Below, one piece after another: positions 1 through 55,714 of a DNA stretch of 64,000 bases. The translations under genes were made by a program, and so were the position numbers. The DNA lies in the NCBI RefSeq assembly GCF_900316895.1, contig NZ_ONER01000001.1, positions 35,500 through 99,499 of the forward strand, in the 5' to 3' direction. Numbering within the stretch: position 1 is the first letter of the stretch; every line of letters begins with the position of its first letter. The DNA is from an uncultured Methanobrevibacter sp. GTDB lineage: Archaea; Methanobacteriota; Methanobacteria; Methanobacteriales; Methanobacteriaceae. The notes under the pieces were generated by a model, which had not been told where the DNA came from, made no database searches, and was given only the letters and a program-made list of their open reading frames with translations.

Positions 1-1816
1 TTATCAGATATAATTCTGCAATATCGTCATAATGACTAACATCAACAGCAAAATGTTTATAGTCATCAACATCAGAATCGGTTATTAAATAGTGATTTCT
101 AACCAGAACGATATATTCATCGCTAATGGCTTTTTCTAGCTTTTCCAAATCAAGTTTGAGCTTGAATTTGACCTTGCCTATGTCATAGGAATCGTCATCC
201 CTCCATGTTGGAGCATATAAAATAACCTTCTTATCATCAGGCAGGTTCAATCTTTCTTTGATTTGGTTTATTTTGCTTTCATCAGCGTTAAACAGGATAT
301 CATTTCTCGGATAACCGGTTTCCAGTATTTCGCCACCATATGCAAATGCCCGTCTGAAGATTTCAGTTGAAAATCTGTTGGGGGAGATGAAATAATCCCA
401 GGCTGACGAATCATGAATATAACTTTCTTTTGTTCGGGGATTTTGAATATAAATATTTCCCATATCAAAACCAAGTTTCTTAAGAGGTGTCCCGTGCCAT
501 GTTGAAAGTAAAACTTGCTGCGGTCTTTTTACCAGCCTGCCCGCCTGCCGGGTGTTTACAACCCAATATTTTGATGTTGCCATCAGCTTGTGATATTTCA
601 GGGAAAACCTCTTTGTGGTTATGGGATTTCCGGGAATTTCAGTTTTTTTATCATTGATTACCCAGACATACTCGAATTCATCGCCATAATGTTTATAGAG
701 ATATTCATAGATATATTTGGGGCTGTCCGAATAAAAGTCTCCGCTGAAGCTTTCAAACATGATTCGCTTATTGTTTATTGGTCGCTTGTTGTAAATGTTA
801 TGATAAAGAGTGTGATAAATGTTTTGAGGATGTTTGATGAAATTCAAAAGCCTGTTGCAGGTTACCCTGATTTTTGAAAGTTTTATGGTCTTTTGCTTAT
901 TTTTTGATTTCAATGCATTTAACTCAAAGCTTTGAATAGGATTCCCCTTAAAGTCATCGGCAATCTCCATGAATGCATCCAAAGCTTCAATCGGTTGCAT
1001 GTGATTTGTTTTTGAAAAGGTGTAATAATAATATTTAAACATTTTTTGAGCCATCAACTCCTTAAGAAGGTCAGATTTGATGGCATTTTTGGCATTCTTA
1101 TACTCCTCAATTGATTTGAAGATATAATCATCAGCGATTTCCTGATTCAATGACGGCAAGTTTATAAAATCATCACTGATTCTTTTGGCATATACCGCAT
1201 TTTCAACACCTATAACAGAATGGATATTGCCTAACAATTCCACCATGAATGGATAATCGGCGAAATATTTTTTTGATTCGTCAAATTTCAAATCTCCAAT
1301 TACATCATGTTTGATCAAAGCATGAAGAACGGACAAAACCTCAAGATTATCATTTTCACCAACGATAAGGTGCATTGAAAATTCCTCATCGGAATATTTA
1401 TTTTTCATGATTTTGGCATTATTTACACTAAACTCTTCGGAAAACCTGTTTCTAATATAATATGTTTCTATTCTTTGACCGTTTATAAAATCGGCATCGG
1501 TTTTTTTAGCACAGTCTACGAGTTTTGAAAGGCCATCCTGATAAATGTAATCGTCACTGTCAATAAAATAGACATATTCTCCGCTAGCCATTTCTAATGA
1601 TTCGTTTCGTGCTTTTCCAACACCTATCTCATCAGCATATGTTTTCACTATAATATTGTCAAATTCACTGATTAAATCATCAATATTTTCAACTGCCCCA
1701 TTAACAATCAGTATTATCTCAAAATCATTTAGATTTTGCTCCCTGATACTTTCAAGACAGTCTTTAAGGTATCTTTTACCTTTTTTAAATGGAATAATTA
1801 TACTTAGAAAGGTCAT
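1..1816 (-). CDS. Bifunctional GT2 glycosyltransferase / TagF-like CDP-glycerol glycerophosphotransferase, C-terminus cut by window edge
   Basis: Absent from the supplied ORF track because there is no stop inside the window. Hand translation from ATG (1816-1814) gives MTFLSIIIPFKKGKRYLKDCLESIREQNLNDFEIILIVNG...YFIDSDD (GT2 signature). It continues ...LSTWHGTPLKKLG...LYAPTWRDD...DVSHYDDIAELYLI and runs off position 1. I met no in-frame stop over about 605 codons. Confidence 0.8.
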   Translation of the reverse strand, partial: MTFLSIIIPFKKGKRYLKDCLESIREQNLNDFEIILIVNGAVENIDDLISEFDNIIVKTYADEIGVGKARNESLEMASGEYVYFIDSDDYIYQDGLSKLVDCAKKTDADFINGQRIETYYIRNRFSEEFSVNNAKIMKNKYSDEEFSMHLIVGENDNLEVLSVLHALIKHDVIGDLKFDESKKYFADYPFMVELLGNIHSVIGVENAVYAKRISDDFINLPSLNQEIADDYIFKSIEEYKNAKNAIKSDLLKELMAQKMFKYYYYTFSKTNHMQPIEALDAFMEIADDFKGNPIQSFELNALKSKNKQKTIKLSKIRVTCNRLLNFIKHPQNIYHTLYHNIYNKRPINNKRIMFESFSGDFYSDSPKYIYEYLYKHYGDEFEYVWVINDKKTEIPGNPITTKRFSLKYHKLMATSKYWVVNTRQAGRLVKRPQQVLLSTWHGTPLKKLGFDMGNIYIQNPRTKESYIHDSSAWDYFISPNRFSTEIFRRAFAYGGEILETGYPRNDILFNADESKINQIKERLNLPDDKKVILYAPTWRDDDSYDIGKVKFKLKLDLEKLEKAISDEYIVLVRNHYLITDSDVDDYKHFAVDVSHYDDIAELYLI

Positions 1817-1829
1817 ATTTCACACAAGT

Positions 1830-3365
1830 CTATTTCTTTTTAATGATATTAAACATTTGAGATATTTCATCACTGCCGTCTGTCAAATCAATGAACTCAT
1901 CAAAATGAACATCCGGAAACTGCTTTTCAAACGATCTTTTAAGAATCGCTTTTGAGTTTCTCTTCTCAAAAAGAGCCGGCGTTAAATCAAATCTGAATGG
2001 AAGGATTTCAATACTTTCAGGAATAAGTTTAAAAATTCTTTCATGATTATTTGAAATATAGTCATCCCACTGCTTATACGTTAAAAATGAGTCATACCCA
2101 TCTACATCAAGATGATTCAACTTATCAATTAATGAATCATTCAGGTTTCCTGCATAAATCAGCAACCTTTTATTATCACCTAAAACCTGTTTGACAATGG
2201 AAGCATTATCGTTATTAATAATTGTCCGTAGCATCTTTTCAGCAGCATCAGGATTGTCATATTGACAGAACTTATCAATGAATTCGCCGTCATCATAATC
2301 CTTATCAGAATTCAATTCCCTAACCAGCTCATCAACATCGGTGACTTTTGGAAACGGCAAATCCTCAAGCGGAAAGTAAAATCCGCGATAGGATTCATAA
2401 TCGGCTTCATCATAGCTGAACAGTATGATTTTCCTTTTCGTATTTGCAAAGTCAAAAAACACACTGGAATAGTCAGTTACCAAAACATCCGCCATATTCA
2501 AAACATCATAGACTTCATAATCTTCGGGAAATGCCCTGATATGATCAAATTTTGAAAAGTCAATTTGTGAAGCATTTAAAACATGCAATTTAGCAAACAG
2601 GATCTGATTCTCATTTAATCTTGCATCAATCTCACTCAGATATTTTTCAACTTCATCCCTTTGGCCTTCGTCATTTCTATCCATCAGTATGCCTCGAAAT
2701 GTTGGCATATAAACAAATATGTCATAATCGTTTAAATCCAGTTCTGATTTCAGTTGGGATTTTGTGAAAAAAACAGAATTTCGAGGATATCCCTCAAGCA
2801 ATATTTTGCCAGGATAGATCTTTTCAATCATATATGCATTAAGCATCTTATCCATCATATAGTCATTTGGATAAAGCAAATAATCACTGGACAAAAGAGG
2901 ATGCTGCACATTTCCAATACGGTGCTGCTCAGCAACATTGTCCCTGCCCATAACCTTAAGGGGAGTGCCGTGCCAGGTATTTACAAAAATCTGGCCCTGT
3001 CTTTTAACGTATTTCGGCCTTATTCCTGAATCAGTGAAAATATATTTGGCTTTTTCCAGGGTCTTGGTTGCCACCGCCTCTTTGGTAATGATTTTGTCTA
3101 TTTTCAAATTGTAATTTTTCTGCAAAGCCCTTATTTTATCTACAACCTGAGGCTTTGCATGAACATGAACCTTAAAATCACCATATTTTCCTGTTGATAA
3201 CTCCTCAACAATTCTGAATATGTTTCCGGTGAAATCCAATCCGTCACGGGATTCCAAATAAATCAGGTCATTATCCAAATCACTATTGTAATATGTGTTA
3301 TAAATCATTGAATTTACAGCACAATCCTTGAAATTAAGCAATTTAGATTTGAAACCCATTTTCAT
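1830..3365 (-). CDS. TagF-like CDP-glycerol glycerophosphotransferase (paralog of the N-terminal 520 aa of 26803..29193)
   Basis: Motifs NTWHGTPLKVMG, VYMPTFRG and VTDYSSVFFDFA. Long colinear similarity to the 796-aa ORF. The track ORF starts at TTG 3386; the first ATG (MKMGFKSK) is at 3365. Confidence 0.85.
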   Translation of the reverse strand: MKMGFKSKLLNFKDCAVNSMIYNTYYNSDLDNDLIYLESRDGLDFTGNIFRIVEELSTGKYGDFKVHVHAKPQVVDKIRALQKNYNLKIDKIITKEAVATKTLEKAKYIFTDSGIRPKYVKRQGQIFVNTWHGTPLKVMGRDNVAEQHRIGNVQHPLLSSDYLLYPNDYMMDKMLNAYMIEKIYPGKILLEGYPRNSVFFTKSQLKSELDLNDYDIFVYMPTFRGILMDRNDEGQRDEVEKYLSEIDARLNENQILFAKLHVLNASQIDFSKFDHIRAFPEDYEVYDVLNMADVLVTDYSSVFFDFANTKRKIILFSYDEADYESYRGFYFPLEDLPFPKVTDVDELVRELNSDKDYDDGEFIDKFCQYDNPDAAEKMLRTIINNDNASIVKQVLGDNKRLLIYAGNLNDSLIDKLNHLDVDGYDSFLTYKQWDDYISNNHERIFKLIPESIEILPFRFDLTPALFEKRNSKAILKRSFEKQFPDVHFDEFIDLTDGSDEISQMFNIIKKK

Positions 3366-3510
3366 CACAAAAAAAATTATTATCAATAATAGTCATTTTA
3401 ATCCTAATTTATGAAACTGTCCATATCCTTTACAGATAATGATTTAGAAAGCGAGATTAATAAAACTTTGTGTTATTTTAAAGATAGTTAAGCAATATTA
3501 AGTTAAAATT

Positions 3511-3556: not shown

Positions 3557-5509
3557 CTATTTAACCTTCACATAAATCTTGTTGTTAATGTTATAATTGC
3601 TATTGCTTAATGTAACAATGATTTTATGCTTTGCCCTGGTTAATTTGGAGGTTTTAATACTCAAAACACCTTTGGAGTTTGTTTTGATTTTGTATACCTT
3701 ATATTTTTTGCCAGTGTATACCTTTACGGTGAATTTTGTTTTCTTGATGAGTTTCTTTGATGCCTTGTTTTTGATTGTCAATTTGATTTTTGAAGGCTTT
3801 TTAACATTCTTTGAATATGTTATTTTGGCCTTGTCCTTTATTTTGGTCCATGATTTGACAAAGGAAACTCCTTCACCCACTGAAACGGTGATTTTGGATT
3901 TGTTTATATTGACCTTGAATGGCACAATAAATGAAACATATCCTTTGGAATCCGCTTTTACCCACTTGGAAGTGTAGGATTTCGGTCCGGTGATCTTGAT
4001 TTTTACTTTTTGATTTACGGGCATCTTCCAAAGTGACGTAAGCTTAACCTTTATTCTGACGCTAGCTGAAGTGTAGGTGTATTGATAAACCTTGGCATTG
4101 AATCCTCCGTAAACCTTTGAAGCAGTGCCTGCAGTATTTTTTGAATATGTAAGCCCGGATATCTTGAATGATTCACTGGTTGAATATATCGCTCCACCTT
4201 TTGATATTGCATCATTCTGTACAAATGAAGCTGTAGAGATTGAATTTGCCTCACTTATCAGGTACAGACCTCCACCATTGTTTGCAGAGTTTTGAGTGAA
4301 TTTGCAGTTTGATATTGTAACCGGGTCATTTTGTGAAAAGATTGCACCACCGTTTTTCAAGGCGCAGTTTGAATTAAACTTACAGTTACTTATTTTAACT
4401 TCACCGAAATCAGCATATATTGCTCCACCATGCTTGCCGGCATAGTTCTGATTAAAATTACAGTTTGAAATATTTACTCGTCCATGATTTGAATATATCG
4501 CTCCACCATAGTTATTGGCACTGTTTGAAGTGAAATCACAGTTAAGAATGTCAACATTTGAAATATATTTGGTGTTGAATACCTTTATTTTTATTGCAGC
4601 GCCTGAAGTACCGTAATTTTCAATGAATTTACAGTTCTTGACTGTGGATGATATGCATGCATCCAATTCCAGCACTCCGCCTGAATGTGTATTTATATTG
4701 TATTGGAAAGTGGAATTCTCTATTTCACTGTATCCAAGCTCGTCGGTATAAATTATTCCACAGTTGTATACAGTATTATATTCAAAAAGGCAATCCTTAA
4801 CAAGCAATTTGGATAGCTTGTATTTTACATCATTATAACTGACAACAAGAATTGTTGACAGGTATGCATTGTTGTTTCTAAATGTTGACCTGTACAATTC
4901 AAGATTGGATCCGATACGGGTAATGATTGCGCTGCCCATACCTGCCTTGAATTGAGCCCATTCCAACTCACTTTCACGAATTGCTGTATTGTTTTCAAAA
5001 AGACAGTCATAAATTTTGACATCAGTTTCACTTTGAGCGTCTAATGCTCCACCGTCGGAATTGTAAGCTATGTTGTCCTGGAAAATACAATTTATAAGAG
5101 TCAGATTGGAATTGACCTCCAAAAAGATTCCTGCTCCGCTACTGTTGGAATATGCATTTCTAAATATGAGGTTTTTCAATACCACATTACAATATGATTC
5201 TATATAAAATCCTCTTGCAATATATGAACCGTCAACATATGAATAGTTTTCACGACCTGAAATGGTGATGTTTTTTGATATTATAACACCATCTGTCAGT
5301 TCCTTGTCTGCTGTATCATTAAATTTATAATCATCAGTCAGATTTAAAGTGCCCTCATTTTCTGTTTCATTGATTTGGTCATTTAAATCCGTGTATGTTT
5401 TTGTCTCATTTGAGTTTGCATCATGATTATCTTCAGCATGAACAGAAGCCATGCCTATAAATATAAATAAAATAACACAGATTAACAATGTTTTTTTACT
5501 TAAATTCAT
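3557..5509 (-). CDS. Adhesin-like protein: signal peptide, parallel beta-helix (GGAI/FxxN repeats), Lys-rich Ig-like C-terminal region
   Basis: N-terminal hydrophobic segment ends in ASVHA. Repeated ~23-aa units (GGAIYSNHGRVNISNCNFNQN, HGGAIYADFGEVKISNCKFNSN, NGGAIFSQNDPVTISNCKFTQN). The C-terminus is extremely Lys-rich. ATG at 5509 is preceded by GAGGGA; the track start at 5524 is TTG. Confidence 0.85.
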   Translation of the reverse strand: MNLSKKTLLICVILFIFIGMASVHAEDNHDANSNETKTYTDLNDQINETENEGTLNLTDDYKFNDTADKELTDGVIISKNITISGRENYSYVDGSYIARGFYIESYCNVVLKNLIFRNAYSNSSGAGIFLEVNSNLTLINCIFQDNIAYNSDGGALDAQSETDVKIYDCLFENNTAIRESELEWAQFKAGMGSAIITRIGSNLELYRSTFRNNNAYLSTILVVSYNDVKYKLSKLLVKDCLFEYNTVYNCGIIYTDELGYSEIENSTFQYNINTHSGGVLELDACISSTVKNCKFIENYGTSGAAIKIKVFNTKYISNVDILNCDFTSNSANNYGGAIYSNHGRVNISNCNFNQNYAGKHGGAIYADFGEVKISNCKFNSNCALKNGGAIFSQNDPVTISNCKFTQNSANNGGGLYLISEANSISTASFVQNDAISKGGAIYSTSESFKISGLTYSKNTAGTASKVYGGFNAKVYQYTYTSASVRIKVKLTSLWKMPVNQKVKIKITGPKSYTSKWVKADSKGYVSFIVPFKVNINKSKITVSVGEGVSFVKSWTKIKDKAKITYSKNVKKPSKIKLTIKNKASKKLIKKTKFTVKVYTGKKYKVYKIKTNSKGVLSIKTSKLTRAKHKIIVTLSNSNYNINNKIYVKVK

Positions 5510-5690
5510 TAAATAATCCCTCAATTTTTATATTTATACCGGATATGTCAAAAAATAATGATTTTATCCGGAAATATGTTTTTTAAAAAAATATGTTTAT
5601 TTTAGTATATAAAGTTAATTCCTTTTTTATAACAGCTTTTTGAAAATTTTCGGTGCTTTTTTGAAAAAAAATGTAAAATAAAATTTAATT

Positions 5691-6779
5691 TTATTTAGCA
5701 CCGATGATACCATTGACATATGGTACCCTGTTCAGTATCGCCAGAATTGCCATCGAACCGAAAAGACCTATACAAATTGACACAACAATTAATAAACCAT
5801 ATGGCATACTTGCTTTCGGCAAGACATAGCCTGACATAAAGATTAATGGATAATGAACAAGATAGATTCCATAACTGTATTTTGCCAGGCTTGAAAGCAA
5901 CTTTCTGAATGCATTAAATTTAACTTTCAAATTGAATTTTGAGAAATTCTTGAATATGATGAATAATGAAATTGCAATCAATGTATTGAATATTGAATAT
6001 CTGTTGAAACATGAAATATTGGTTGGGTCTGATCTCAGATATCCGATATATGTGGATATTGCTGAGACAATAATCAGAACAACTAACGCGAGGTAAGGGT
6101 TGTTTAAAAACTTCCTTTCAGTGTATCTCAGATAATATCCGCAGACAACCAAACCTATAGGGCTTACGAAATAGGTAAGCTTGATAGGGAACTCCATATT
6201 TAGAGTGAAACTGAATACACAGGTTATCAACCAGAATACAAGGAAATATTCAGCTTCCTTTAAGTCTGAATGCAGCAGCCATCTGTTGAAAATAGGCATA
6301 ATCAGATAAGTTCCCAGAATCATCCAGAAGAACCAGTTTGCATTAAAACCATAGACTTCACCCATGAATGCGCCTTTTGCAAAATTTAAAAGGTAACCTA
6401 TATCGAATGCGTCCACAACATGACTGATGCCCACAAATGAAAGTATTATGAATATTATAATGAAAATTATATTCCAAAATGCAAATGGATAAACAATCCG
6501 AGGAATCCTTTTTGACAGGAATGGCTTGATTTCCCACTCACGACCCAGTGACAGTGCACCGGACAGCATTAAAAAGAGCAAAACACCAACCCTAACCGGG
6601 TTATAGATTATCTGTGATACGATCCAACTCAGTGTGGGACCTACATATGCATTATAAATCAGATATTTGTTTATTGTAACTGTATGAACCATCACTACAC
6701 ATATAATGGCCAATGCCCTTAGGGCATCAAAATAGAATATTCTCTTTCTCTTTTTTTTAGTGGTGCCAGTTTCCGCCAT
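5691..6779 (-). CDS. Acyltransferase family 3 integral membrane O-acyltransferase
   Basis: About 10 hydrophobic segments. The N-terminal motif RIFYFDALRALAIICVVMVH is typical of the AT3 family. ATG at 6779 (MAETG) is preceded by AAGAGGA; an upstream ATG at 6809 is an alternative start. Confidence 0.8.
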   Translation of the reverse strand: MAETGTTKKKRKRIFYFDALRALAIICVVMVHTVTINKYLIYNAYVGPTLSWIVSQIIYNPVRVGVLLFLMLSGALSLGREWEIKPFLSKRIPRIVYPFAFWNIIFIIIFIILSFVGISHVVDAFDIGYLLNFAKGAFMGEVYGFNANWFFWMILGTYLIMPIFNRWLLHSDLKEAEYFLVFWLITCVFSFTLNMEFPIKLTYFVSPIGLVVCGYYLRYTERKFLNNPYLALVVLIIVSAISTYIGYLRSDPTNISCFNRYSIFNTLIAISLFIIFKNFSKFNLKVKFNAFRKLLSSLAKYSYGIYLVHYPLIFMSGYVLPKASMPYGLLIVVSICIGLFGSMAILAILNRVPYVNGIIGAK

Positions 6780-6949
6780 ATTAATCCTCTTATAATCTAT
6801 TTTATACATTGATTACATATAAACTTATTGATAGAATAAACAACAATATAGACAAAATTATATAAATTTAAAACAAAAATCATGACCAATTTATACATTT
6901 ATGGCAACCACCATAATTTATGATGTACCCTGACTCACTGAATTGAATT

Positions 6950-37158: not shown

Positions 37159-37203
37159 ATCATCAACCAATAATACTATCTATAATTAAATTTAAGAAAA
37201 AAA

Positions 37204-37215
37204 TATTATATAAAC
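37204..37215 (-). promoter_or_regulatory. Candidate archaeal TATA box for the GT2-GtrA operon
   Basis: Minus strand reads TTTATATAATA about 48 nt upstream of the ATG at 37158. No experimental support. Confidence 0.3.
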
Positions 37216-37491
37216 ATTTGTTAATGTTGAAAAGTACCCTAAAAAAATATCTTTCGAAAAATCTAACAGAAATATCCAAAATTTTGATGAAATTTTTTTA
37301 AAAAATGTAAAAATTTAATTACGTTATCTACATGTCAACATCGTTCATTGTTAAAAATTCCTTATCGAATTAAATTATTGAAGAAATAATCAAGTAAAAT
37401 AACATTCCAATATAAAACGATGATTTAATGTGTAGTCAAATTAATTATTTGATAGCTTTGAAAATATGAAAAAATAGATGATTAAAATTAA

Positions 37492-38175: not shown

Positions 38176-38183
38176 TTTACCAC

Positions 38184-38834: not shown

Positions 38835-38865
38835 TTAAGAATTCTCCCTCTAAAACCAATTCAAT

Positions 38866-42423: not shown

Positions 42424-42456
42424 AAAAAAAAATAAAAAAAGTTGATTAACCAACTT
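42424..42456 (-). terminator. Hairpin plus long oligo-T terminator after adhesin-like gene
   Basis: Minus strand reads AAGTTG-GTTAAT-CAACTT (overlaps the stop codon) followed by TTTTTTATTTTTTTTT. Confidence 0.55.
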
Positions 42457-45837: not shown

Positions 45838-45851
45838 ATTCACACCAATAA

Positions 45852-47174: not shown

Positions 47175-48380
47175 TTAAATCTTTTTAGAAATCCTTTCAT
47201 AAATGTTTTTAGTCTTATATGAAAACCATCCCTGAGTGGTCTTGATTAATTTAATTTCATCTTTTAACTTCTTATTATCCTTTTTCAGACTGCCATTGAT
47301 ACTGATTTGCTCATTAACCTGTTTTCTTAAATTTCTATTTTTTGCGTTTAATTCCTTGATCTTATCCTTATAAGAACGCTCAGAACTAACCAATCTGATT
47401 AATGAGTCAAAATCCTCATTTAAAAACAGGTCATATTTCAGTTTATCGATATCCTCCAGATTAGTAAAGGATTCTTCTGGAAGAGTTTCGGCAAAAGGCC
47501 TTACATCATTGTCCATTATCTCAATATATTCCTTTTCGCACCTATCAAATTCATTAATATACTGCAATATATCAATTTCAACAAGTTTTTTATAGAATGT
47601 ATCCAATAAAGAAGAGTTTTTCTCCGAAGAGTTGAAAACATCCAATATTCTTTTTGAAATGGTGATTCTGTCCTTTAAATTTTTCAACTTGAAAACATTC
47701 TGTGTAACTGAATAATTTTCACTGGTTCTGACTCTCCAATAATAGTTAACATCAGGTAAAATTCCCAAACATTTGCTTGCACAAAAAAGCTCCATTGAAA
47801 ACAAAAGGTCTTCATATAACATATTTTCTAAAAATTTAAAACCTGAATCGTCGATTAAATCCTTTCTTATGAATTTTGACATACTAGTATCATAAATTAA
47901 AGTCTTATGCTCAAAAATATTGGTTTTTGAATAGGTTTTGTCATATCCTGCCTTGGAATGTAATACACAAGTCCATTCAACACCTTCATCATTGAAGCGA
48001 ATGGCATTGAAAACCACCAAGTCATGGTCATAATCTTTTGCAAATTTATAAAGTTTTTCATATGCATCTTCCTGAATTTTATCATCTGAATCCAGAAAAG
48101 TCACATATTCTCCGTTAGCTATATCTAAACCTTTATTTCTTGAAATTGATTGTCCTTGATTAGACTCATTTTCTATCAATATAATCCTATCATCCTTTTT
48201 AGAATACTCCTTTAAAATTTTAAGACAATCATCACTGGAGTTATCTTCAATGCAGATTATTTCAATGTCTTCAAGTGTCTGACTGATTATTGAATCCAAA
48301 CATTCTTCAAGATATTCTTCCGTATTATAAACCGGAACTATTACACTAACCAAAGGATTTTCAACACTCATATTAATCAT
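47175..48380 (-). CDS. GT2 glycosyltransferase with C-terminal coiled coil
   Basis: VSVIVPVYNTEEYLEECLDSIISQTLEDIEIICIEDNSSD...FLDSDD. C-terminus is KELNAKNRNLRKQVNEQ...KKLKDEIKLIKTTQGWFSYKTKNIYERISKKI. ATGA overlap with the upstream gene. Confidence 0.85.
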   Translation of the reverse strand: MINMSVENPLVSVIVPVYNTEEYLEECLDSIISQTLEDIEIICIEDNSSDDCLKILKEYSKKDDRIILIENESNQGQSISRNKGLDIANGEYVTFLDSDDKIQEDAYEKLYKFAKDYDHDLVVFNAIRFNDEGVEWTCVLHSKAGYDKTYSKTNIFEHKTLIYDTSMSKFIRKDLIDDSGFKFLENMLYEDLLFSMELFCASKCLGILPDVNYYWRVRTSENYSVTQNVFKLKNLKDRITISKRILDVFNSSEKNSSLLDTFYKKLVEIDILQYINEFDRCEKEYIEIMDNDVRPFAETLPEESFTNLEDIDKLKYDLFLNEDFDSLIRLVSSERSYKDKIKELNAKNRNLRKQVNEQISINGSLKKDNKKLKDEIKLIKTTQGWFSYKTKNIYERISKKI

Positions 48381-50230
48381 TTTAAGATTATCGCTATACT
48401 TCCATCATTATCTTCAAATATTCTAATCTTTTTACCATTATATTCGACAGTCCTCTCTTCAAAGTCAACAAATGCATCTTTCTTTAATTTAAACTTGTTT
48501 TTATGAATTTCAATGTTGAGATTGTATTTGGTATTCTCTTCAATAGAATATTTCCAAATCAATTCCAGTTCATTCTGCAATCTGATTTTAGGACTTTCAT
48601 CCTTTTTAGAGAAATAAACATTATCATATTTATAGTTTAAAGCAACTTTATAAATAGCTGCACCGTCAGTATGAGGAATTAAAGTCATTGATTGGCCATC
48701 CGCCCTGTAATCAAAGAAATTCCTGCAGTATCCCTTTGTAATTGAAAAGTTGCCTAATGATGTGAAATAGAATAGTAAATCTTTATTTTTATTCAAGTCG
48801 ACTATTTCATTATTTTCCTTATTAAAAAATCTTTCCTTGAATCTGAATATTTCATAATCATCATCATAAACCACTTTTAAATGAACGTCATAATTGTTGA
48901 TGTTTGTTATCTCATCAACATTTACCTTTCCTGAATATATGTGATCATCAACCTCATCCAATCCAAATTCAAAAATATTATTCGCCCTTAAAGAATCCCT
49001 CTTTGTCAATCCCATGAATGCGACTTTAACTTCATTGATTTTTAAATTCCGAGGCAATTTAATATTATTGAAGTAGATATATTTGGAATCCGCTGAAATG
49101 TCATCAATATCTATAAAATTATCTTCTGCTTTACCAATTTCAAACACTTCGTCAGGAATGTTATAATCAGGATTGTCGAAGTACTTAACATTCCAATATA
49201 GTTTTCCATCACGATAAACGGTTGAACGCTCATCCAAATCAAAGTTTAGGAAATCTTCCAAATCCTTGTCCATATCGTTCAATATGAAATAAAAGAACAG
49301 GTTATATCTTATTTCCAGATTATTATCATAAATGTCATCAATATCTGATAAAATGGCCTTAATTTCACTTAAATAAGCCTTTTTAAAGTTTTCATCTTTT
49401 AAAATACCTTTTATAGGGTAAAAGAATCTTTCAAGATATGTCTTTATCACATAACTGAAATACTGTTCCTTTCCAGCTTCCTTAAAGTAATCCTTAGCAT
49501 AATAATATGTAGAAAGCCTATCCTTCATGTTAGGTATGTCAAGTAAACTTTTACTGATTGATGTGTCACTGTTTCCTTCAATAATGTCCTCTTGGGCACG
49601 TCTACGCCAATAATAAACGACATCAGGGATAATGCTGATCTTGTCTGCAAAGGAATATGCCCTATAAACCAGCGGAACATCAGCATAAATCTTTCCGGGA
49701 ATCATGTAAATATCATGTTTTTCAACAAATTCCCTTCTGTAAATCTTGTTCCAATAAAAAACATCATAGTAAATCTCTTTGAATTCGTCGACAGTGAATG
49801 TCCTCTCTTCATCCCAGATATTATTTTTATAGGTGATTTCTCTTTGATACCTGCTCACATATTTGACAGGTTTTCCAGCAACAATGTCAGAATCAGTCTC
49901 CTTTGCTTTTTTGTATAACTTTTCATAGGCGTCTTCAACAACGATATCATCAGAATCAATAATTGCTACATATTCCCCTTTTGCAATTTTAAGACCATTG
50001 TTTCCTGCAACAGCCCCACCCTGATTTTTTTGGTCAATGATTGTTATATTATCATATTTTCTGGCATACTGCTTCAATATATTCAAACTGTTATCTGTAC
50101 TTTCATCATTGACACAAATGATTTCCATATCGTCCAATGTCTGATTAAGAAGTGAATCCAAACAGTCTTCCAAATAATATTCAGTATTATAAACTAAAAC
50201 AACAACAGATAATTTATATTCATTTGTCAT
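48377..50230 (-). CDS. GT2 glycosyltransferase with ~350-aa C-terminal extension of unknown function
   Basis: LSVVVLVYNTEYYLEDCLDSLLNQTLDDMEIICVNDESTDNS...IIDSDD. First ATG at 50230; upstream TTG/GTG alternatives run to 50248. Confidence 0.8.
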   Translation of the reverse strand: MTNEYKLSVVVLVYNTEYYLEDCLDSLLNQTLDDMEIICVNDESTDNSLNILKQYARKYDNITIIDQKNQGGAVAGNNGLKIAKGEYVAIIDSDDIVVEDAYEKLYKKAKETDSDIVAGKPVKYVSRYQREITYKNNIWDEERTFTVDEFKEIYYDVFYWNKIYRREFVEKHDIYMIPGKIYADVPLVYRAYSFADKISIIPDVVYYWRRRAQEDIIEGNSDTSISKSLLDIPNMKDRLSTYYYAKDYFKEAGKEQYFSYVIKTYLERFFYPIKGILKDENFKKAYLSEIKAILSDIDDIYDNNLEIRYNLFFYFILNDMDKDLEDFLNFDLDERSTVYRDGKLYWNVKYFDNPDYNIPDEVFEIGKAEDNFIDIDDISADSKYIYFNNIKLPRNLKINEVKVAFMGLTKRDSLRANNIFEFGLDEVDDHIYSGKVNVDEITNINNYDVHLKVVYDDDYEIFRFKERFFNKENNEIVDLNKNKDLLFYFTSLGNFSITKGYCRNFFDYRADGQSMTLIPHTDGAAIYKVALNYKYDNVYFSKKDESPKIRLQNELELIWKYSIEENTKYNLNIEIHKNKFKLKKDAFVDFEERTVEYNGKKIRIFEDNDGSIAIILK

Positions 50231-50235
50231 AAATC

Positions 50236-51552
50236 TCACATTCTCCAATCAATTAATGATTCAATAGCATCCAAATCAAATACAGGCAATTTTAGTTTAT
50301 TTGAAATAACCATCCTTTCGGAAAATGAATCGTCGATAAATATTGCAGATACATCGTTATCCATGTATTTATATTTGTCATCTTCTTTTGATAATGTAAT
50401 TATCTCATCAAATAGATTAATATCTATTTTTAACTCTTTTAATGTCTCTTTAATATCTTTAATGTGTTTTGTAATTAAAATTATCTCCTTTCTTTCATTT
50501 ACACACTGATACAGGAACATCATGAGAAAGGTGTTGATTTTTCCTTTAACAAAAACAGTATCATCAAAATCAATGTACACCCTGTCGTAATCAATTTCAT
50601 AATTAAATCTATTGGTTAATGCCCTGTCAATGGTTAACCTGTTTTCATTGGTCAATACCTTAACATCAATTCCCAAATGAGCATATAATGTTAAAAGAGG
50701 AAAGTTGATACCTGTATTTCTGTGCAATGCCATTGTTCCGGCAATTCTTGGTGCGATTTCCAATAATTTATACTGATTATTCTTATCCTTTTTAAGCTGG
50801 AAGAACCATGCCCCATCAAAAGTTAATTTTGAATTGATTATTTCTGCAATCTCTTTAATAGATTCTTCAGTTTGAACAGTTATTGCATTTACGCTAATTC
50901 CATCTTTTACGCGAATCCTTTGCCTTTTTTCACAGTACAATAATTTACCTTTGGCAGAAAAACAATCAATTGTGTATTCTTCATTAGGAAGGTATTCAAC
51001 TGCAATCAATCCCGGATTTTCCGTGAAATGATGTTTCAAATCATCGACATTATTGGCAATGGCAACTCCCTTGGCTCCCTGACCTACATCAGGCTTTAAA
51101 AAAATTGGGAATTCCCCATCAGTCTGCTTTCTGACATGATCCAAATCATCGAAACTGTCTTTGGAAATGTCATACAATTTAGGAATGAAATCAAATTCCC
51201 TGAAAAATTTATATGTTTTGCTTTTGGATCTGCAAACGTCACATGTTTTGCTATTTGAAACAACAACATGGGCCTTCAAATCATCCTTGAGTTCTGAAAG
51301 CTTCAATACGACATCATCATGTGCAGGATATATCAAATCAATACCATTCTTTTCAATAGCTTCATTCAGGAAGTCCAACAAGCCGTCATCATCAATGAAT
51401 GGAATGTCTGGGATATAATTTTCATATACAAACTTGCCGTGGTCGTCTACACTGGAGCCGCCGTACAGCTTAAAATCCTTACTGTATTTTAAAGCATTGT
51501 GAATTTCTAAACCAATCTCAGAACCGCAGGGAAACACTAAAACATTTTTCAT
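50236..51552 (-). CDS. ATP-grasp ligase domain fused to a HAD-like phosphatase domain
   Basis: The N-terminal ~310 aa has an ATP-grasp-like layout (FLKPDVGQGAKGV...AVEYLPNEEYTIDCF...LLEIAPRIAGT, cf. the E-I-N-P-R motif). The C-terminus carries HAD motifs YIDFDDTVF (DxDxT), ILITKH and IFIDDSFSE. Confidence 0.65.
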   Translation of the reverse strand: MKNVLVFPCGSEIGLEIHNALKYSKDFKLYGGSSVDDHGKFVYENYIPDIPFIDDDGLLDFLNEAIEKNGIDLIYPAHDDVVLKLSELKDDLKAHVVVSNSKTCDVCRSKSKTYKFFREFDFIPKLYDISKDSFDDLDHVRKQTDGEFPIFLKPDVGQGAKGVAIANNVDDLKHHFTENPGLIAVEYLPNEEYTIDCFSAKGKLLYCEKRQRIRVKDGISVNAITVQTEESIKEIAEIINSKLTFDGAWFFQLKKDKNNQYKLLEIAPRIAGTMALHRNTGINFPLLTLYAHLGIDVKVLTNENRLTIDRALTNRFNYEIDYDRVYIDFDDTVFVKGKINTFLMMFLYQCVNERKEIILITKHIKDIKETLKELKIDINLFDEIITLSKEDDKYKYMDNDVSAIFIDDSFSERMVISNKLKLPVFDLDAIESLIDWRM

Positions 51553-51564: not shown

Positions 51565-52548
51565 TCATTCAAAATTATCATTAATCTCTTCAAACTTAAT
51601 AATCTCATTTTCAAAGATTTCAACAATACCAGGATATTTTCTGAGCCTTCCCATTCTTTGATGGAATGTCAGGACCTTAGGTATATTCCAATAATTACCG
51701 TAATAAGTTTTTAAATAATAATCCTTATCATTTGGACCTGGGAACTCATATTTACCAAATTGAACACGTTTAAATGGCTGCATCTTATCGGTTTCAAAAA
51801 CTTTGAGTTTTAAAATCCTTTTTGGTCCTTGAGGACCTTCTACACCATTCAGCATGTGATTGGTCCTATCCCATGTCAGATCCATGTTCTCATGATATCT
51901 TTCAACTGTGGCATCATAATCGCCAATTTCCACAATATCATGATAGAATTTCAATCTCGCATCCTCATACTTCTGACCGATATCCTCACCATTATATTGC
52001 TTCATATAGTCATATGGGAAAACATCAAGTGCGGTCAAATCAACTCCTCCGCCACTTAATGTATTGTAATAGAATAACTGTAAAAATGAAGTTGCACCTT
52101 CAACAAAGGCGTTTCTTTGCCTGAAATTGATTTTTATATTATCCTTAAGGCCATTTCTTTCAAGCTCTTCGGGAAGAACATCAACCAATTTGTTATAATC
52201 CTCCCTCATCATTCCGGAGTCCATATCATCATCCCATGGAATGAAACCGTCATGCCTGATAGCTCCTAAAAATGTACCTCCCTCAATCATCCACTCCAAA
52301 TCATACTTCATGCATACGTTATCCATGAATCTCAACAATTCCAAGGACAAGTCCCTGAAACTTTGAAGCAAAGGACTTGGAGTCAACTCATAATCAAGAA
52401 AGATTGTATTAAACAGTCTATTATTGGAGTCATTGGCTTTTTCAAGTCTCTCAACTTTTTTAGTTAAAACATCAACCTGATTTTTATAATATTTAAGTGA
52501 ACCGCTATTGTTTATTAATTTCTTTGCAAATTTTTGTTTTAAACCCAT
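51565..52548 (-). CDS. licD: LicD-family phosphotransferase (phosphocholine / polyol-phosphate transferase family)
   Basis: EGGTFLGAIRHDGFIPWDDDMDSGM is the LicD signature (DxD). N-terminal coiled-coil leader. Confidence 0.8.
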   Translation of the reverse strand: MGLKQKFAKKLINNSGSLKYYKNQVDVLTKKVERLEKANDSNNRLFNTIFLDYELTPSPLLQSFRDLSLELLRFMDNVCMKYDLEWMIEGGTFLGAIRHDGFIPWDDDMDSGMMREDYNKLVDVLPEELERNGLKDNIKINFRQRNAFVEGATSFLQLFYYNTLSGGGVDLTALDVFPYDYMKQYNGEDIGQKYEDARLKFYHDIVEIGDYDATVERYHENMDLTWDRTNHMLNGVEGPQGPKRILKLKVFETDKMQPFKRVQFGKYEFPGPNDKDYYLKTYYGNYWNIPKVLTFHQRMGRLRKYPGIVEIFENEIIKFEEINDNFE

Positions 52549-52557
52549 CGAAACACC

Positions 52558-54579
52558 CTAATTGAATATTTTCTTAATAATTTTTTCTGAAGAATCACCA
52601 TCACATAAGCTGCAAAATCTTTGATAAAACTCGTCATACTTGTCAGCAAAGTCATTTGAGATTTCATCAATATTTTTAATAGTGTCAATTAATTGATCAT
52701 TATCTTTTATAAGTGGACCTGGAAGTTCCTTTTCCATATTCAAATATAATCCTCTAACATTTTCAATATAATGATTTAAGTCAGGCACGAAAAATAGAAT
52801 TGGCCTTCTTGAATGTGCGTAATCAAAGAATACAGAGGAATAATCAGTAATTAAAATATCTGACAGGATATACAGCTCTTGAACATCATCATAACTTGAC
52901 AAGTCAATAGCGAAATCCTTCATTTTCTCATCAATGTGAAGATTTTCAGATACCAAATGATGCATCTTTAAAATGATTACATATTCATCGGAAAATTCCT
53001 CATATAACCTTTCCAAATCAATCTCTAAATTGAAGTAATGTTGCCAGGAGTCATTTTTCTCATCATCTTTCCATGTTGGGGCATACAATATAATTTTTTT
53101 ATTCTCATCAATATTGAGTTTGGATTTCAAATCTTTGACAAATTCATCATTATCCTTAAAGAAAATGTCATTTATAGGATATCCTAACTCCAAAACTTCC
53201 TTATTGTATTTAAACGCCCTTTTAAAAATTTTTGTAGAATAAGTGTTTGAAGACAATAAATAATCCCAGTTTCTGGACTCATTGAAGAAATTCTGTCTGC
53301 CCTGAACTTCGGGCCCAGGAATGGTAATGTCAAAACCCAATTTCTTAAGTGGAGTACCGTGCCAGGTCTGTAAATAAACATTGCCCGGCCTTTTTGTGTG
53401 AATTGGAAATATGATATTATTTACCCAATATTTTGACAATGCGAGGTATTTGTAGTAGTCTCCAGGCTGGAATCTATCAACAATTATAGGATTTCCAGGA
53501 ATTATATCTTTATTTTCACCTGAATATGCCCAGACAAAAGTATATTTTTTATCCAAACCCATTTCAAGCATTTTTTCATAAATATATTTTGGATTACCGC
53601 TATATGCATTCCCAAAAAAGCTTTCAAAGAAAATCATATTCTCATCTATTCTGTTTTTGGAAGCCTCTTCATAGATTGTTCTTCCGCATGCAATTGTATA
53701 TGATCTCCACCAAGCCGCCTCGGTTGTAATCCATAATGCCAGTGAATGTTTATTTTCAGTAGCGTAATAAGAATAGACATTGCCGTCAACATCAAGTTTA
53801 ATCAGGAATCTGTCTTCATCATTTTCAAAGTATTTGAATGTTGATAAAACAATTAAAGACTGATAATATATATCATCATCATAAAGTCTCAGATAAAAAT
53901 CCATTCTTAAATCAAGGATTGATTTATCTGAACTATTTATTTTGTCGATTATTCCTTCAAAAGTATATTTTTTATTATTTGATTCATCAGGGCTGAATTT
54001 CATGTCGAAAATGTTACTTTGACTGTCCAGCCTATGATTTGCCATGATCGTAACCCTGTCAATATTCTCAATATCATCATTTAATACTTCAAAATCCCCT
54101 TTAATCAGGATATTATTATCATCAATGCTCTCCAAATGGGTAATATTATAATCAAAATCTATATCATCAATTTTTATTGACAGGTTCCCGAAATTTGTTT
54201 TATATGAATTTAATACCAGATGCTTTTCTCTGGATATGGCCTTAAAGAATTGGTTTGAAGGAATGAACTTTACCCTCTTTTTATAGAACAAATCATTTGA
54301 TTTGAATTTAAAATAAAAATCCAATGCTCCGCTTTGAGTCATTTCCACCAGTTCAGAAATTTCAAACACGGCAGTTGAAGATTTTACTTTACGCAACAAT
54401 CTTTTACCACTTGACCTGTGTTTAATTTCAATGAATGAATTTGGCATGACCCTTTTGGTTGTTTTGACTATTATATTTCCATCCTGTAAAGACAACTCAA
54501 CGGTAGGCACTGAATAATAGCTGAAATACTTATTTAAGAGTTTTTTAGCAATTTTTTTACCCTTACTTTTGATACTCAT
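52558..54579 (-). CDS. TagF-like glycerophosphotransferase with ~290-aa N-terminal extension
   Basis: QTWHGTPLKKLG, LYAPTWKDD, ITDYSSVFFDYA. RBS GGTG. Confidence 0.85.
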   Translation of the reverse strand: MSIKSKGKKIAKKLLNKYFSYYSVPTVELSLQDGNIIVKTTKRVMPNSFIEIKHRSSGKRLLRKVKSSTAVFEISELVEMTQSGALDFYFKFKSNDLFYKKRVKFIPSNQFFKAISREKHLVLNSYKTNFGNLSIKIDDIDFDYNITHLESIDDNNILIKGDFEVLNDDIENIDRVTIMANHRLDSQSNIFDMKFSPDESNNKKYTFEGIIDKINSSDKSILDLRMDFYLRLYDDDIYYQSLIVLSTFKYFENDEDRFLIKLDVDGNVYSYYATENKHSLALWITTEAAWWRSYTIACGRTIYEEASKNRIDENMIFFESFFGNAYSGNPKYIYEKMLEMGLDKKYTFVWAYSGENKDIIPGNPIIVDRFQPGDYYKYLALSKYWVNNIIFPIHTKRPGNVYLQTWHGTPLKKLGFDITIPGPEVQGRQNFFNESRNWDYLLSSNTYSTKIFKRAFKYNKEVLELGYPINDIFFKDNDEFVKDLKSKLNIDENKKIILYAPTWKDDEKNDSWQHYFNLEIDLERLYEEFSDEYVIILKMHHLVSENLHIDEKMKDFAIDLSSYDDVQELYILSDILITDYSSVFFDYAHSRRPILFFVPDLNHYIENVRGLYLNMEKELPGPLIKDNDQLIDTIKNIDEISNDFADKYDEFYQRFCSLCDGDSSEKIIKKIFN

Positions 54580-54595
54580 GAATAAAACACCACAA

Positions 54596-55714
54596 TCATT
54601 TCAATTCGATTTCAATGATTTTACAAATTTTTTCAACATCCTCAACAGTCAAATCCAAATATAAAGGTAATGAAAGGATTGTATCACTGACATTTTTGGC
54701 AATTGGCGTATTTTTTTCAAAATCGTATGCTGGAAATTCATTGCATGGAGGATAGAAATATCTTTTAGCGTAAACATTATATTCAGGCAATTTATTAAAT
54801 AAATGATCCTTTTCATCAAATGTATTCAATTTAATTGTGAAATATGCATAATTATATTCGACATTGTCTTTAGGTCTTAAAACTTTAACCCTGCCCTGGT
54901 CTTCAAGATTTGACAGGCATTCCAAATATTTCTCATAAATTATCTTTCTTTTGGCAATTGCGCTTTCAACATATTCCAAGTTGATTAAACCCATTGCTGC
55001 TTCAAACTCATTCATTTTGGCATTTACGCCTAAAAATTGCACTTCCTCATTATCGGGAGTGATTCCGAAGTTTTTAATTGACCTAAATTTATAAGTTAAA
55101 TCATTATCATCATACATCAATGCTCCGCCTTCAATAGTATTGAACACCTTTGTTGCATGGAAACTAAACATGCTGATATCACCATAGGAACCGATAGGAT
55201 TACCGTCTATCTTAACATTAAAGGCATGGGCAGCATCATAGATTACTTTCAAATCATTCCTTTTAGCAATTTTTTCAATTTTATCAACATCACAAGGATT
55301 TCCGAATACGTGGACAGGAATGATTGCGGAAGTCTTATCAGTAATCAAATCTTCAATATTGTCAGGGTCAAGATTATAATATTCCTCATCCACATCTGCA
55401 TAAACGGGGGTTAAACCATTGTTAATAATTGCTTGAGTGGTTGAAGCGAAGGTGAATGGAGTTGTAATGACTTCTCCGGTTAAGCCCAATGCTTTTATAG
55501 CCACTTCCAATGAGGCATGACCATTTACAAAAAATTCAATATTTTTTACATCAAGGAAATCTTTAAGTTTTTCCTGGAATTCACGTTCTAACGGCCCATA
55601 ATTAGTTATCCAATTATTGTCCCAAATCTCTTTTAGTCTTTTTTCGTATTCTTCGATTGGAGGCAATAACGGTCTTGTAACAAGTATTGGCTCTTTAAAT
55701 TTTAAATCCTTCAT
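54596..55714 (-). CDS. DegT/DnrJ/EryC1/StrS-family PLP-dependent sugar aminotransferase
   Basis: GHASLEVAIKALGL, DAAHAF, and SFHATKVFNTIEGGAL (PLP lysine). RBS AGAGGA. First gene of a tightly packed 8-gene operon. Confidence 0.85.
   Translation of the reverse strand: MKDLKFKEPILVTRPLLPPIEEYEKRLKEIWDNNWITNYGPLEREFQEKLKDFLDVKNIEFFVNGHASLEVAIKALGLTGEVITTPFTFASTTQAIINNGLTPVYADVDEEYYNLDPDNIEDLITDKTSAIIPVHVFGNPCDVDKIEKIAKRNDLKVIYDAAHAFNVKIDGNPIGSYGDISMFSFHATKVFNTIEGGALMYDDNDLTYKFRSIKNFGITPDNEEVQFLGVNAKMNEFEAAMGLINLEYVESAIAKRKIIYEKYLECLSNLEDQGRVKVLRPKDNVEYNYAYFTIKLNTFDEKDHLFNKLPEYNVYAKRYFYPPCNEFPAYDFEKNTPIAKNVSDTILSLPLYLDLTVEDVEKICKIIEIELK

Follow-up and report, generated by a model that had tools for sequence, protein, structure and literature searches.

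A surface-glycopolymer gene island of an uncultured rumen Methanobrevibacter that probably directs synthesis of teichoic-acid-like poly(glycosyl-glycerol-phosphate) chains

The stretch of DNA analyzed here, called the window throughout, comprises 64,000 nucleotides of contig NZ_ONER01000001.1 (positions 35,500 to 99,499) from an uncultured Methanobrevibacter sp. Positions 1-55714 belong to a surface-glycopolymer biosynthesis island of this rumen methanogen, in which conserved anchor genes flank content that varies from species to species and from strain to strain. The island probably serves the synthesis of a teichoic-acid-like glycopolymer made of poly(glycosyl-glycerol-phosphate) chains. This reading is carried by a set of TagF-like domains that keep their catalytic histidines, by one gene that matches both transferase domains of a characterized capsule polymerase, and by purifying selection on the transferase genes. 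An earlier note on this DNA had described eight TagF-like domains with one LicD phosphotransferase, about eleven GT2 domains and three AT3 acyltransferases, nearly all on one strand. Pfam searches and a custom hidden Markov model (HMM) bear out this inventory.

Results

TagF-like domains and their catalytic residues

Eight open reading frames (ORFs) of the window match the Pfam family Glyphos_transf (PF04464) at 114-375 bits, against a cut-off of 22.1 bits, and they are the same eight that the earlier note had listed (Table 1). A ninth TagF gene, coding for a 720-residue GT2+TagF protein (domain Z), is situated just left of the window. Its TagF domain is fused to GT2, as are those of 1-1816 and 29506-33015. 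The nine domains were aligned with MAFFT to residues 349-712 of Staphylococcus epidermidis TagF (from 3L7I), with the catalytic base identified from the mutant entry 3L7J (H444N). An equivalent of His444 is kept in all nine, including 25471-26796 (domain C), where it is the histidine of VYHENP. His584, within an [RK]-x-H motif, has an equivalent in eight of the nine; domain C is the exception, with an aspartate at this position and PHYL instead of PTWR or PTFR. The earlier note had proposed this alignment as a check on the TagF reading, which is not refuted, because the catalytic histidines are kept. Its account of the short motifs holds in part. Domain C does carry VYHENP, YMPHYL and TDFSS, but the statement that all others have WHGTP and YAPT[WF]R needs small corrections: 29506-33015 has TMHGTP, 52558-54579 has YAPTWK, and both 1830-3365 and 26803-29193 have YMPTFR.

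The domains fall into two clades. Identity to TagF amounts to 34-48% for domains A, Z, E, F, G and H, whereas B (1830-3365), C (25471-26796) and D (26803-29193) share 43-68% identity with one another and 20-27% with TagF. In searches against 3L7I, 45852-47159 gives an E value of 1e-64 with both histidines aligned, and 29506-33015 one of 5e-82. The GT2 part of the latter matches GalT1 (5HEA) as well as 5TZE and 6H1J, which we take to be the wall-teichoic-acid glycosyltransferases TarS and TarP. Six of the nine domains resemble the CDP-glycerol:poly(glycerophosphate) glycerophosphotransferase TagF of S. epidermidis and Bacillus subtilis (PDB 3L7I-3L7M) in Pfam family, histidine pair, and PTWR and TDYSS motifs. 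The archaeal case differs in that the host has pseudomurein, that several of the TagF-like copies carry a fused GT2 or GT4 domain, and that the context of a tagO/A/B/D/G/H operon is missing from the window. Judged by their sequences, seven TagF-family polyol-phosphate transferases of the window and the one just outside it are apparently active.

A single-sequence AlphaFold model of the N-terminal domain of 52558-54579 had a predicted local distance difference test score (pLDDT) of 44, too low for a fold search, and a 790-residue TagF protein in locus L013, considered as a TagD fusion, contains no TagD domain.

A gene resembling the capsule polymerase Cps3D

Cps3D of Actinobacillus pleuropneumoniae is a TagF-like capsule polymerase that transfers glycerol 3-phosphate (Gro3P) and galactose in alternation (PMC11666461). 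Its product is a poly(galactosyl-glycerol-phosphate) capsule made from CDP-glycerol and UDP-Gal (PMC11666461). Residues 19-794 of the protein encoded by 26803-29193 align in a single stretch to residues 372-1138 of the 8QOY chain, with a phmmer E value of 1.7e-66. The aligned part spans CgoT, the Gro3P transferase, and CgaT, the GT4 galactosyltransferase. Residues essential in Cps3D are kept: H479 of CgoT, R982 and K987 of CgaT, and E1059/E1067 of the EX7E motif. The equivalent of H609 is kept when judged by the [RK]-x-H motif as MAFFT aligns it, while the phmmer register puts the query histidine one residue on. The match to both CgoT and CgaT therefore predicts an alternating poly(glycosyl-glycerol-phosphate) product, and a polymer of the Cps3D type is more likely than plain poly(glycerol phosphate).

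The architecture is very common in the genus. TagF+GT4 proteins of about 790 residues form at least 120 Methanobrevibacter sequence clusters at 52% identity or more, which carry the NCBI name "CDP-glycerol glycerophosphotransferase family protein". Domain B (1830-3365) shares 68% identity with the TagF domain of 26803-29193, and is 54-55% identical over about 520 residues to the TagF+GT4 proteins of Methanobrevibacter YE315.

A split paralogue

The aberrant domain C belongs to a second TagF+GT4 gene, 24442-26796, which is 44% identical to 26803-29193. Contig L042, which is 99.8% identical to the window across 19.4 kb, has one intact ORF of 784 residues here, and of the 2355 nucleotides of the gene just one differs. 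Where L042 has the serine codon TCA (codon 442), the window has TGA (coordinate 25472). This stop codon, be it genuine or introduced by the assembly, divides the gene into 25471-26796 (441 residues) and 24442-25437 (331 residues). The first half is without the His584 equivalent and the PTWR motif. The GT4 half has NKSIYNK for GRFTPEK, and an arginine replaces the first glutamate of EX7E. The gene is most plausibly a duplicate that is decaying or has no catalytic activity.

Selection on the island genes

The ratio of nonsynonymous to synonymous substitution (dN/dS) was determined against a congener locus of 94% identity (L009). It is 0.026, 0.032 and 0.035 for three TagF genes (0.032 for 45852-47159 and 0.035 for 44521-45837), 0.023 for LicD, 0.029 for one GT2 gene and 0.049 for the ATP-grasp ligase. 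Neighboring ABC importer genes have values of 0.04-0.07. The TagF, LicD, GT2 and ATP-grasp genes are thus under strong purifying selection (dN/dS 0.02-0.05). For the orphan gene 39837-41213 the value is 0.12, above that of its neighbors.

Precursor supply, priming and export

The earlier note had seen no cytidylyltransferase, initiating transferase or exporter in the window, and the searches agree. Across the window ORFs, with precomputed Pfam calls for the small genes, there was no match to PF01467, PF12804, IspD, PF00953, PF02397, PF01061 or Wzx. The sole exception is a sub-threshold PF00483 match (19.6 against a 21.2-bit cut-off) inside the GT2 domain of 48377-50248. A tblastn search of the window with the GpsA and nucleotidyltransferase of a congener also gave no match. 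No hidden cytidylyltransferase or exporter domain was found in the unannotated regions with Pfam at E values up to 1 or by PDB sequence search. These regions were the N-terminal 310 residues of 52558-54579, the middle 646 residues of 29506-33015 (which had no Pfam or PDB sequence match of any kind), the linker of 26803-29193, the C-terminal parts of 48377-50248, 47175-48380 and 1830-3386, and the whole of 9188-10507 and 39837-41213. The window has no ABC-2 exporter, its sole ABC system being an amino-acid importer. Neither the window nor about 17 kb of its flanks on the same scaffold contain a PF00953/PF02397 priming transferase, and these flanks are likewise without cytidylyltransferase and exporter.

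Congeners do carry such genes. The syntenic locus in the complete genome of YE315 (CP010834, ~1.112-1.134 Mb) has the same CDF, GSHPx, Usp and amino-acid ABC flanks as the window, at 65-83% identity. It starts with GpsA, an NAD(P)H glycerol-3-phosphate dehydrogenase of bacterial type (NCBIfam subfamily score of 275 bits, above the cut-off of 257 bits), followed by a 255-residue NTP_transferase whose nearest solved relatives are the cytidylyltransferases LicC (1JYK, 6e-14) and IPCT. Two TagF+GT4 genes, GtrB, GtrA, DUF2142, AT3 and two more TagF genes come next. This locus shares GtrB/GtrA (81-86% identity), DUF2142, AT3 and TagF+GT4 with the window, but it has the GpsA and LicC-like genes inside, and its transferase set is much smaller and different. 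A second metagenome-assembled genome (MAG) has a GpsA and nucleotidyltransferase pair between TagF genes. On other rumen Methanobrevibacter contigs a core locus holds radical-SAM, GpsA, nucleotidyltransferase, GatB, CBS and PRA-PH genes. About 2.7 kb downstream of it are an ABC-2 permease and ATPase, with best matches to the O-antigen exporter Wzm (6M96, 4e-18) and TarG (6JBH, 3e-11) and NCBIfam scores of 220 bits for TagH and 211 bits for Wzt. At least 120 clusters of GpsA homologues exist at 71-78% identity; all those with names belong to Methanobrevibacter.

GpsA was always found paired with the LicC/IPCT-like nucleotidyltransferase (L018, the YE315 locus, 5761-7510; L019 13813-15651; L022 6001-7749). 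A GpsA of the sn-glycerol-3-phosphate type is notable in an archaeon with sn-glycerol-1-phosphate lipids. Going by its relatives, the predicted cytidylyltransferase of the genus does not belong to the TagD family. Methanogen homologues of "TagD" can be the FAD synthetase RibL, and for this reason the "TagD" annotation of mru1718 in Methanobrevibacter ruminantium M1 was not accepted as proof of CDP-glycerol supply. A 212-residue gene of locus L012 (MAG RUG13973), without a homologue in the window and tried as a LicC candidate, is a methyltransferase. That locus has four LicD paralogues and a methyltransferase beside a TagF gene (4695-7854 and 11529-12551).

In M. ruminantium M1, two "polysaccharide/polyol phosphate ABC transporter" pairs and a polyprenyl glycosylphosphotransferase are annotated (PMC2812497). 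Also listed is a TarI/TarJ-like pair made up of an IspD-like cytidylyltransferase and an alcohol dehydrogenase, and a nucleotidyltransferase is numbered beside a TagF gene (PMC2812497). The M1 and congener genes together indicate that the genus has a conventional ABC-transporter-dependent toolkit, which in the window organism is not in the island. The earlier note had left it between functions encoded elsewhere and a non-canonical route. The former is better supported, because congeners have GpsA, the LicC-like enzyme and an ABC-2 exporter at other loci. By analogy, we infer that the genes for all three are elsewhere in the window organism's own genome.

Modification outside the membrane

The GtrB-like gene 36226-37170 overlaps the GtrA-like gene 35801-36229. 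Its product scores 206 bits with the NCBIfam AglJ model and 93 bits with that for dolichyl-phosphate-hexose transferase, both under the equivalog cut-offs. The GtrA-like protein is a putative flippase for a polyprenyl-phosphate-sugar. The proteins encoded by 10861-12681 (PMT_2) and 17805-19358 (DUF2142) are probably two GT-C enzymes, and we infer that the latter is a GT-C-like partner of GtrA/GtrB; PDB sequences gave no informative match for it. The three-component systems GtrA/GtrB/GtrC and CsbB/GtcA/YfhO glycosylate O-antigens and Gram-positive teichoic acids after export. The window likewise has a GtrB-type synthase gene overlapping a GtrA-family gene and polytopic GT-C-like proteins. It differs in that its GT-C candidates are distant from the pair (17-25 kb) and in that the GT-C role of DUF2142 is a prediction. 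In L012 and L018 (YE315), a DUF2142 homologue directly adjoins the pair. By comparison with the known systems, the GtrB/GtrA pair and the GT-C candidates suggest decoration on the outer side of the membrane. Extracytoplasmic O-acylation would suit the three AT3 proteins, and the one at 5691-6809 probably O-acylates an exported glycan.

Layout of the island and its host

The window contains 41 ORFs of at least 150 residues. In 1-55714, 35 of the 36 genes are on the minus strand, and the lone plus-strand gene is the AT3 gene 21977-23017. Left of the window are, in order, the rest of the cut 707-residue GT2+TagF gene, the 720-residue GT2+TagF gene, an adhesin-like gene, a GT2 gene and then unrelated genes. 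This order places the island end about 5.5 kb beyond position 1, so that the island extends leftward from 55714 over about 61 kb in total.

Among species-representative genomes, the sequences closest to 45852-47159 come from four uncultured or MAG Methanobrevibacter (66-94% identity), followed by a Coriobacteriales MAG (55%). Named homologues of two other window genes are from Methanobrevibacter in every case, and the right flank contains housekeeping genes of methanogen type, among them DUF1890, DUF1894 and HypA/HypB. These relatives and housekeeping genes identify the host as a rumen Methanobrevibacter, in line with the archaeal methanogen context given by the earlier note. Identical window proteins are encoded on scaffold_20 (125.9 kb) of ENA assembly ERZ1049744 and on many rumen metagenome contigs.

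One module runs from DegT through TagF (673 residues), LicD, ATP-grasp, GT2, GT2, TagF, TagF or GT2-TagF, GT2, the 458-residue orphan, the ABC importer and GtrB to GtrA. Three other species keep this order, and a fourth has it rearranged. The anchors (window 35801-39696 and 55870-58551; loci L009-L013 and L018) are the amino-acid ABC importer, GtrB/GtrA, Usp, GSHPx and CDF, which are 65-98% identical. The glycan genes located between these anchors and around them are exchanged among species, as in bacterial O-antigen and capsule loci. Between 8 and 20 kb the G+C content falls to 0.23-0.27, and between 24 and 28 kb to about 0.27; the flanking DNA has 0.33-0.35.

GT2 domains are present in nine proteins, and eleven GT2 cores were counted with an HMM built from the window's own cores. 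UDP-glucuronate is the predicted product of the dehydrogenase encoded by 23089-24423, which scores 463 bits with the NCBIfam TuaD model and passes the NDP-sugar dehydrogenase subfamily model. The ATP-grasp ligase (50236-51552) possibly attaches an amino-acid substituent. The orphan family of 39837-41213 has 636 homologues; those with names are only from Methanobrevibacter, and some are fused to GT2. An AlphaFold model from 31 sequences (pLDDT 85) has a GT-B fold and a long C-terminal helix, and its best Foldseek matches are the GT4 enzymes MshA, BshA and PimB (E value ~1e-8, TM-score ~0.45-0.5). The modeled protein is most likely one more transferase and not the missing precursor or export function. 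It was also considered as a priming enzyme and rejected, having a generic GT-B fold and no sign of priming or nucleotidyl transfer. Outside the island, the cis-prenyltransferase (61692-62465) would, from its family, produce the polyprenyl carrier. The use of undecaprenyl carriers has been reported for methanogens with pseudomurein (PMC10117817).

Some further features stand apart. The protein encoded by 9188-10507 has the repeat motif D..WY..TY...HYL..GY..G.NP...F...EY...NPL.HYE..GR. Rfam and tRNA scans of the window gave no match, and the AT-rich 748 bp at 34265-35012 also have no ORF of 50 residues or more. Right of the island, 59628-60878 (minus strand) encodes a 416-residue protein with a zinc ribbon, a HELSH motif of the HExxH type and weak Peptidase_M78 and DUF6782 matches. 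Paired adjacent small ORFs without a family match occur at 58991-59574 (97 and 97 residues) and 63227-63922 (122 and 108 residues).

Table 1. Predicted genes of the island and a nearby cis-prenyltransferase gene (aa, amino acids; TM, transmembrane)
Predicted product	Position in window	Strand	Basis and remarks
GT2 + TagF-like fusion (domain A)	1-1816	-	PF00535 + PF04464 (258 bits); truncated by window end; 707 aa in L007; both catalytic His kept
TagF-like, Cps3D-CgoT clade (domain B)	1830-3365	-	511 aa, stand-alone, without GT4; PF04464 204 bits (ORF 1830-3386); both His kept
Adhesin-like surface protein (beta-helix, PMP repeats)	3557-5524	-	PF13229, PF02415
AT3 membrane acyltransferase	5691-6809	-	PF01757, 105 bits
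Adhesin-like surface protein	6950-9112	-	PF13229, PF02415
Soluble 439-aa protein	9188-10507	-	Three ~90-aa tandem repeats; no Pfam or NCBIfam match
GT-C membrane glycosyltransferase (PMT_2/ArnT-like), probable	10861-12681	-	PF13231; ~12 TM segments by hydropathy
GT2 glycosyltransferase, two GT2 cores	12733-14397	-	PF00535; 2 domains by custom HMM
GT-B-like glycosyltransferase (Glyco_trans_1_2)	14413-15546	-	PF13524, 102 bits
GT2 glycosyltransferase, 610 aa	15556-17388	-	PF00535, 161 bits
DUF2142 polytopic membrane protein	17805-19358	-	PF09913; ~12 TM segments
Double-GT2 glycosyltransferase, 694 aa	19804-21888	-	PF00535, two domains
AT3 acyltransferase	21977-23017	+	PF01757
UDP-glucose 6-dehydrogenase (TuaD/AglM-like)	23089-24423	-	PF03721/PF00984/PF03720
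Degenerate TagF+GT4 paralogue (domain C)	24442-26796	-	TGA at 25471-25473 gives 441-aa + 331-aa ORFs; PF04464 114 bits (ORF 25471-26796)
Bifunctional TagF-like Gro3P transferase + GT4 (domain D)	26803-29193	-	Cps3D-like, 796 aa, without TPR domain; PF04464 197 bits
GT2 + 640-aa middle region + TagF-like (domain E)	29506-33015	-	PF00535 + PF04464 (375 bits); 1169 aa
AT3 acyltransferase	33176-34264	-	PF01757
GtrA-like small membrane protein	35801-36229	-	142 aa; PF04138 in precomputed Pfam calls for identical gene
GtrB/AglJ-like polyprenyl-phosphate hexose synthase	36226-37170	-	PF00535; GT2 + two C-terminal TM helices
Amino-acid ABC importer (SBP_bac_3/BPD_transp_1)	37492-39696		
Orphan GT-B-fold protein, long C-terminal helix	39837-41213	-	458 aa; no Pfam or NCBIfam match
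GT2 glycosyltransferase	41258-42355	-	PF00535, 141 bits
Adhesin-like surface protein	42455-44350	-	PF02415, PF13229
Stand-alone TagF-like phosphotransferase (domain F)	44521-45837	-	PF04464, 275 bits (ORF 44521-45843); both His kept
Stand-alone TagF-like phosphotransferase (domain G)	45852-47159	-	PF04464, 297 bits
GT2 glycosyltransferase, coiled-coil C-terminus	47175-48380	-	PF00535; weak coiled-coil family matches C-terminally
GT2 glycosyltransferase	48377-50248	-	PF00535; 440-aa C-terminal region without match
ATP-grasp ligase	50236-51552	-	PF15632, PF02655; NCBIfam CPS-like ATP-grasp matches below cut-off
LicD-family phosphotransferase	51565-52548	-	PF04991, 95.8 bits against 22.6-bit cut-off
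TagF-like phosphotransferase (domain H)	52558-54579	-	PF04464, 373 bits; ~300-aa N-terminal domain without Pfam or PDB match; both His kept
DegT/DesI/PseC-like sugar aminotransferase	54596-55714	-	PF01041, 317 bits; NCBIfam DesI 303 bits, below cut-off; right island end
Cis-prenyltransferase (UppS-like)	61692-62465	+	PF01255, 268 bits; 6 kb right of island

Discussion

In the mechanism that we consider probable, one or more poly(glycosyl-glycerol-phosphate) chains would be assembled at the cytoplasmic face from CDP-glycerol and UDP-sugars, on a polyprenyl-phosphate-linked primer. CDP-glycerol would come from a bacterial-type GpsA and a LicC-like nucleotidyltransferase encoded elsewhere, as in congeners. 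LicD, the aminotransferase, the ATP-grasp ligase and the UDP-glucose dehydrogenase would attach or provide phospho-substituents, amino sugars and uronic acids. The chains would then be exported by an ABC-2 transporter of the Wzm/TagG-Wzt/TagH type, likewise encoded elsewhere, and outside the membrane GtrB/GtrA with GT-C enzymes would glycosylate them and the three AT3 proteins would acylate them.

Several observations weigh against this mechanism. The predicted donor substrate of the TagF-like proteins is taken from homology only. When 1830-3365 and 45852-47159, the two proteins tested, were compared with the NCBIfam TarF, TarB and TarL models, both scored below the equivalog cut-offs (best TarF score 232 against 550 bits), so that they are family members and not assignable orthologues. 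The protein encoded by 26803-29193 begins at its CgoT domain, and thus differs from Cps3D/Cps7D (PDB 8QOY) in having neither the N-terminal helical bundle nor the TPR domain. Cps3D depends on its TPR domain for dimerization and processive synthesis (PMC11666461). The group-2 capsule context, with KpsMT or a lipid-Kdo primer and the CpsA/CpsC transition transferases, is also missing from the window. The exact protein was found in 3 blocks of an assembly collection, as against 113-170 for 1830-3365, 45852-47159 and the TatD gene; with so few contigs, the middle sub-cluster may be specific to certain strains or more polymorphic. The organism's own scaffold, over about 81 kb, has no GpsA, nucleotidyltransferase, ABC-2 exporter or priming transferase, and two candidate GpsA clusters are both in assemblies other than ERZ1049744. 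No LCP domain was reported for any window ORF, which leaves attachment to the wall unsupported for want of an LCP-type ligase. Finally, in agreement with the earlier note, the literature searched contains no polyol-phosphate polymer chemically demonstrated in an archaeon.

The TagF-like enzymes might instead add single or short glycerol-phosphate or phospho-sugar decorations, without any long backbone, to a capsular heteropolysaccharide, to pseudomurein strands or to glycans of the adhesin-like proteins. Plain glycosyltransferases (11 GT2 cores, several GT-B and two GT-C) exceed those of a classical tag/tar operon, adhesin-like genes are interspersed in the island, and the low TarF and TarL scores of the two tested proteins would suit non-polymerizing enzymes. 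Galactose, rhamnose, glucose and mannose occur in M. ruminantium walls, and a capsule has been described (PMC2812497). The same work relays an earlier report of wall phosphate at teichoic-acid levels (PMC2812497), which on the other hand fits a phosphodiester backbone. Nine TagF paralogues, moreover, exceed what decoration would need, and 26803-29193 shares both domains and the catalytic residues with an alternating polymerase of proven function, so decoration without a backbone appears rather unlikely. A donor other than CDP-sn-glycerol-3-phosphate, such as CDP-ribitol or sn-1 CDP-glycerol, would give a ribitol-phosphate polymer or one of other stereochemistry. Relatives of LicD use CDP-ribitol or CDP-choline, archaea make sn-glycerol-1-phosphate for their lipids, and the TagF family includes the ribitol-phosphate transferases TarL and Bcs3. 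The TarI/TarJ-like pair of M1 is listed under teichoic acid synthesis (PMC2812497). Yet in three congener contexts the nucleotidyltransferase always accompanies a bacterial-type GpsA, which makes sn-glycerol-3-phosphate. The closest structural relatives, TagF and the CgoT of Cps3D, are both CDP-glycerol enzymes, and TarL scores are far below those of TarF, all of which makes another donor improbable.

That the genes could be inert remnants of transfer from gut bacteria, with no product, is suggested by the Coriobacteriales relative at 55% identity, by Firmicutes best matches in the M1 table (PMC2812497), by the low G+C content in parts of the island and by the nonsense codon of the degenerate paralogue. 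We reject this reading because dN/dS is 0.02-0.05, equal to that of housekeeping neighbors. It is further contradicted by catalytic residues kept in eight of nine domains, by synteny from DegT to the 458-residue orphan in several species, by hundreds of homologue clusters in Methanobrevibacter and by transcription of a TagF homologue in M. ruminantium M1 (PMC5816558), and we regard it as scarcely credible.

Such genes of Methanobrevibacter genomes have been published on before, as the earlier note had said, and routine annotation records them; the island described here is unusually large. Leahy et al. 2010 reported teichoic-acid homologues in M. ruminantium M1, listed them as bacteria-like and inferred an unidentified wall glycopolymer (PMC2812497). 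The full-text literature searched contains no chemical or enzymatic characterization of the Methanobrevibacter polymer since then. The M1 genes (mru1078/1079, mru2181/2182 and mru2191 among others) are from the same genus and families and include the same GT2/TagF fusions as the window. M1 differs in having TarI/TarJ-like genes and a polyol-phosphate ABC transporter numbered near its TagF genes, all absent from the window, and it has fewer TagF paralogues than the eight of the window, or nine with the gene outside. What the present analysis contributes is the Cps3D-type reading of the TagF+GT4 genes and the GpsA and LicC-like pair as the probable source of CDP-glycerol in the genus. Further additions are the core-locus ABC-2 exporter, the GtrA/GtrB/GT-C layer and the explanation of the aberrant eighth domain as a degenerate paralogue interrupted by a nonsense codon.

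A bolder proposal, which we advance tentatively and consider doubtful, is that these are true wall teichoic acids, namely poly(glycosyl-glycerol-3-phosphate) chains based on sn-glycerol-3-phosphate and attached covalently to pseudomurein by a non-LCP ligase. One hypervariable island would then encode several different polymers, and this island could be the main determinant of serotype and virus reception in rumen methanogens.

Methane in ruminants and in the human gut comes mainly from Methanobrevibacter, and anti-methanogen vaccines, lytic enzymes and archaeal viruses all target the surface of this archaeon. The Cps3D-like polymerase, and the GpsA and LicC-like pair as the likely source of CDP-glycerol, are testable targets. 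If the proposed synthesis of poly(glycosyl-glycerol-phosphate) chains is correct, it would explain the phosphate-rich walls reported for M. ruminantium and would suggest a strain-variable antigen. The product would be the first polyol-phosphate wall polymer of an archaeon, and a clear case of an archaeon taking up bacterial envelope chemistry.

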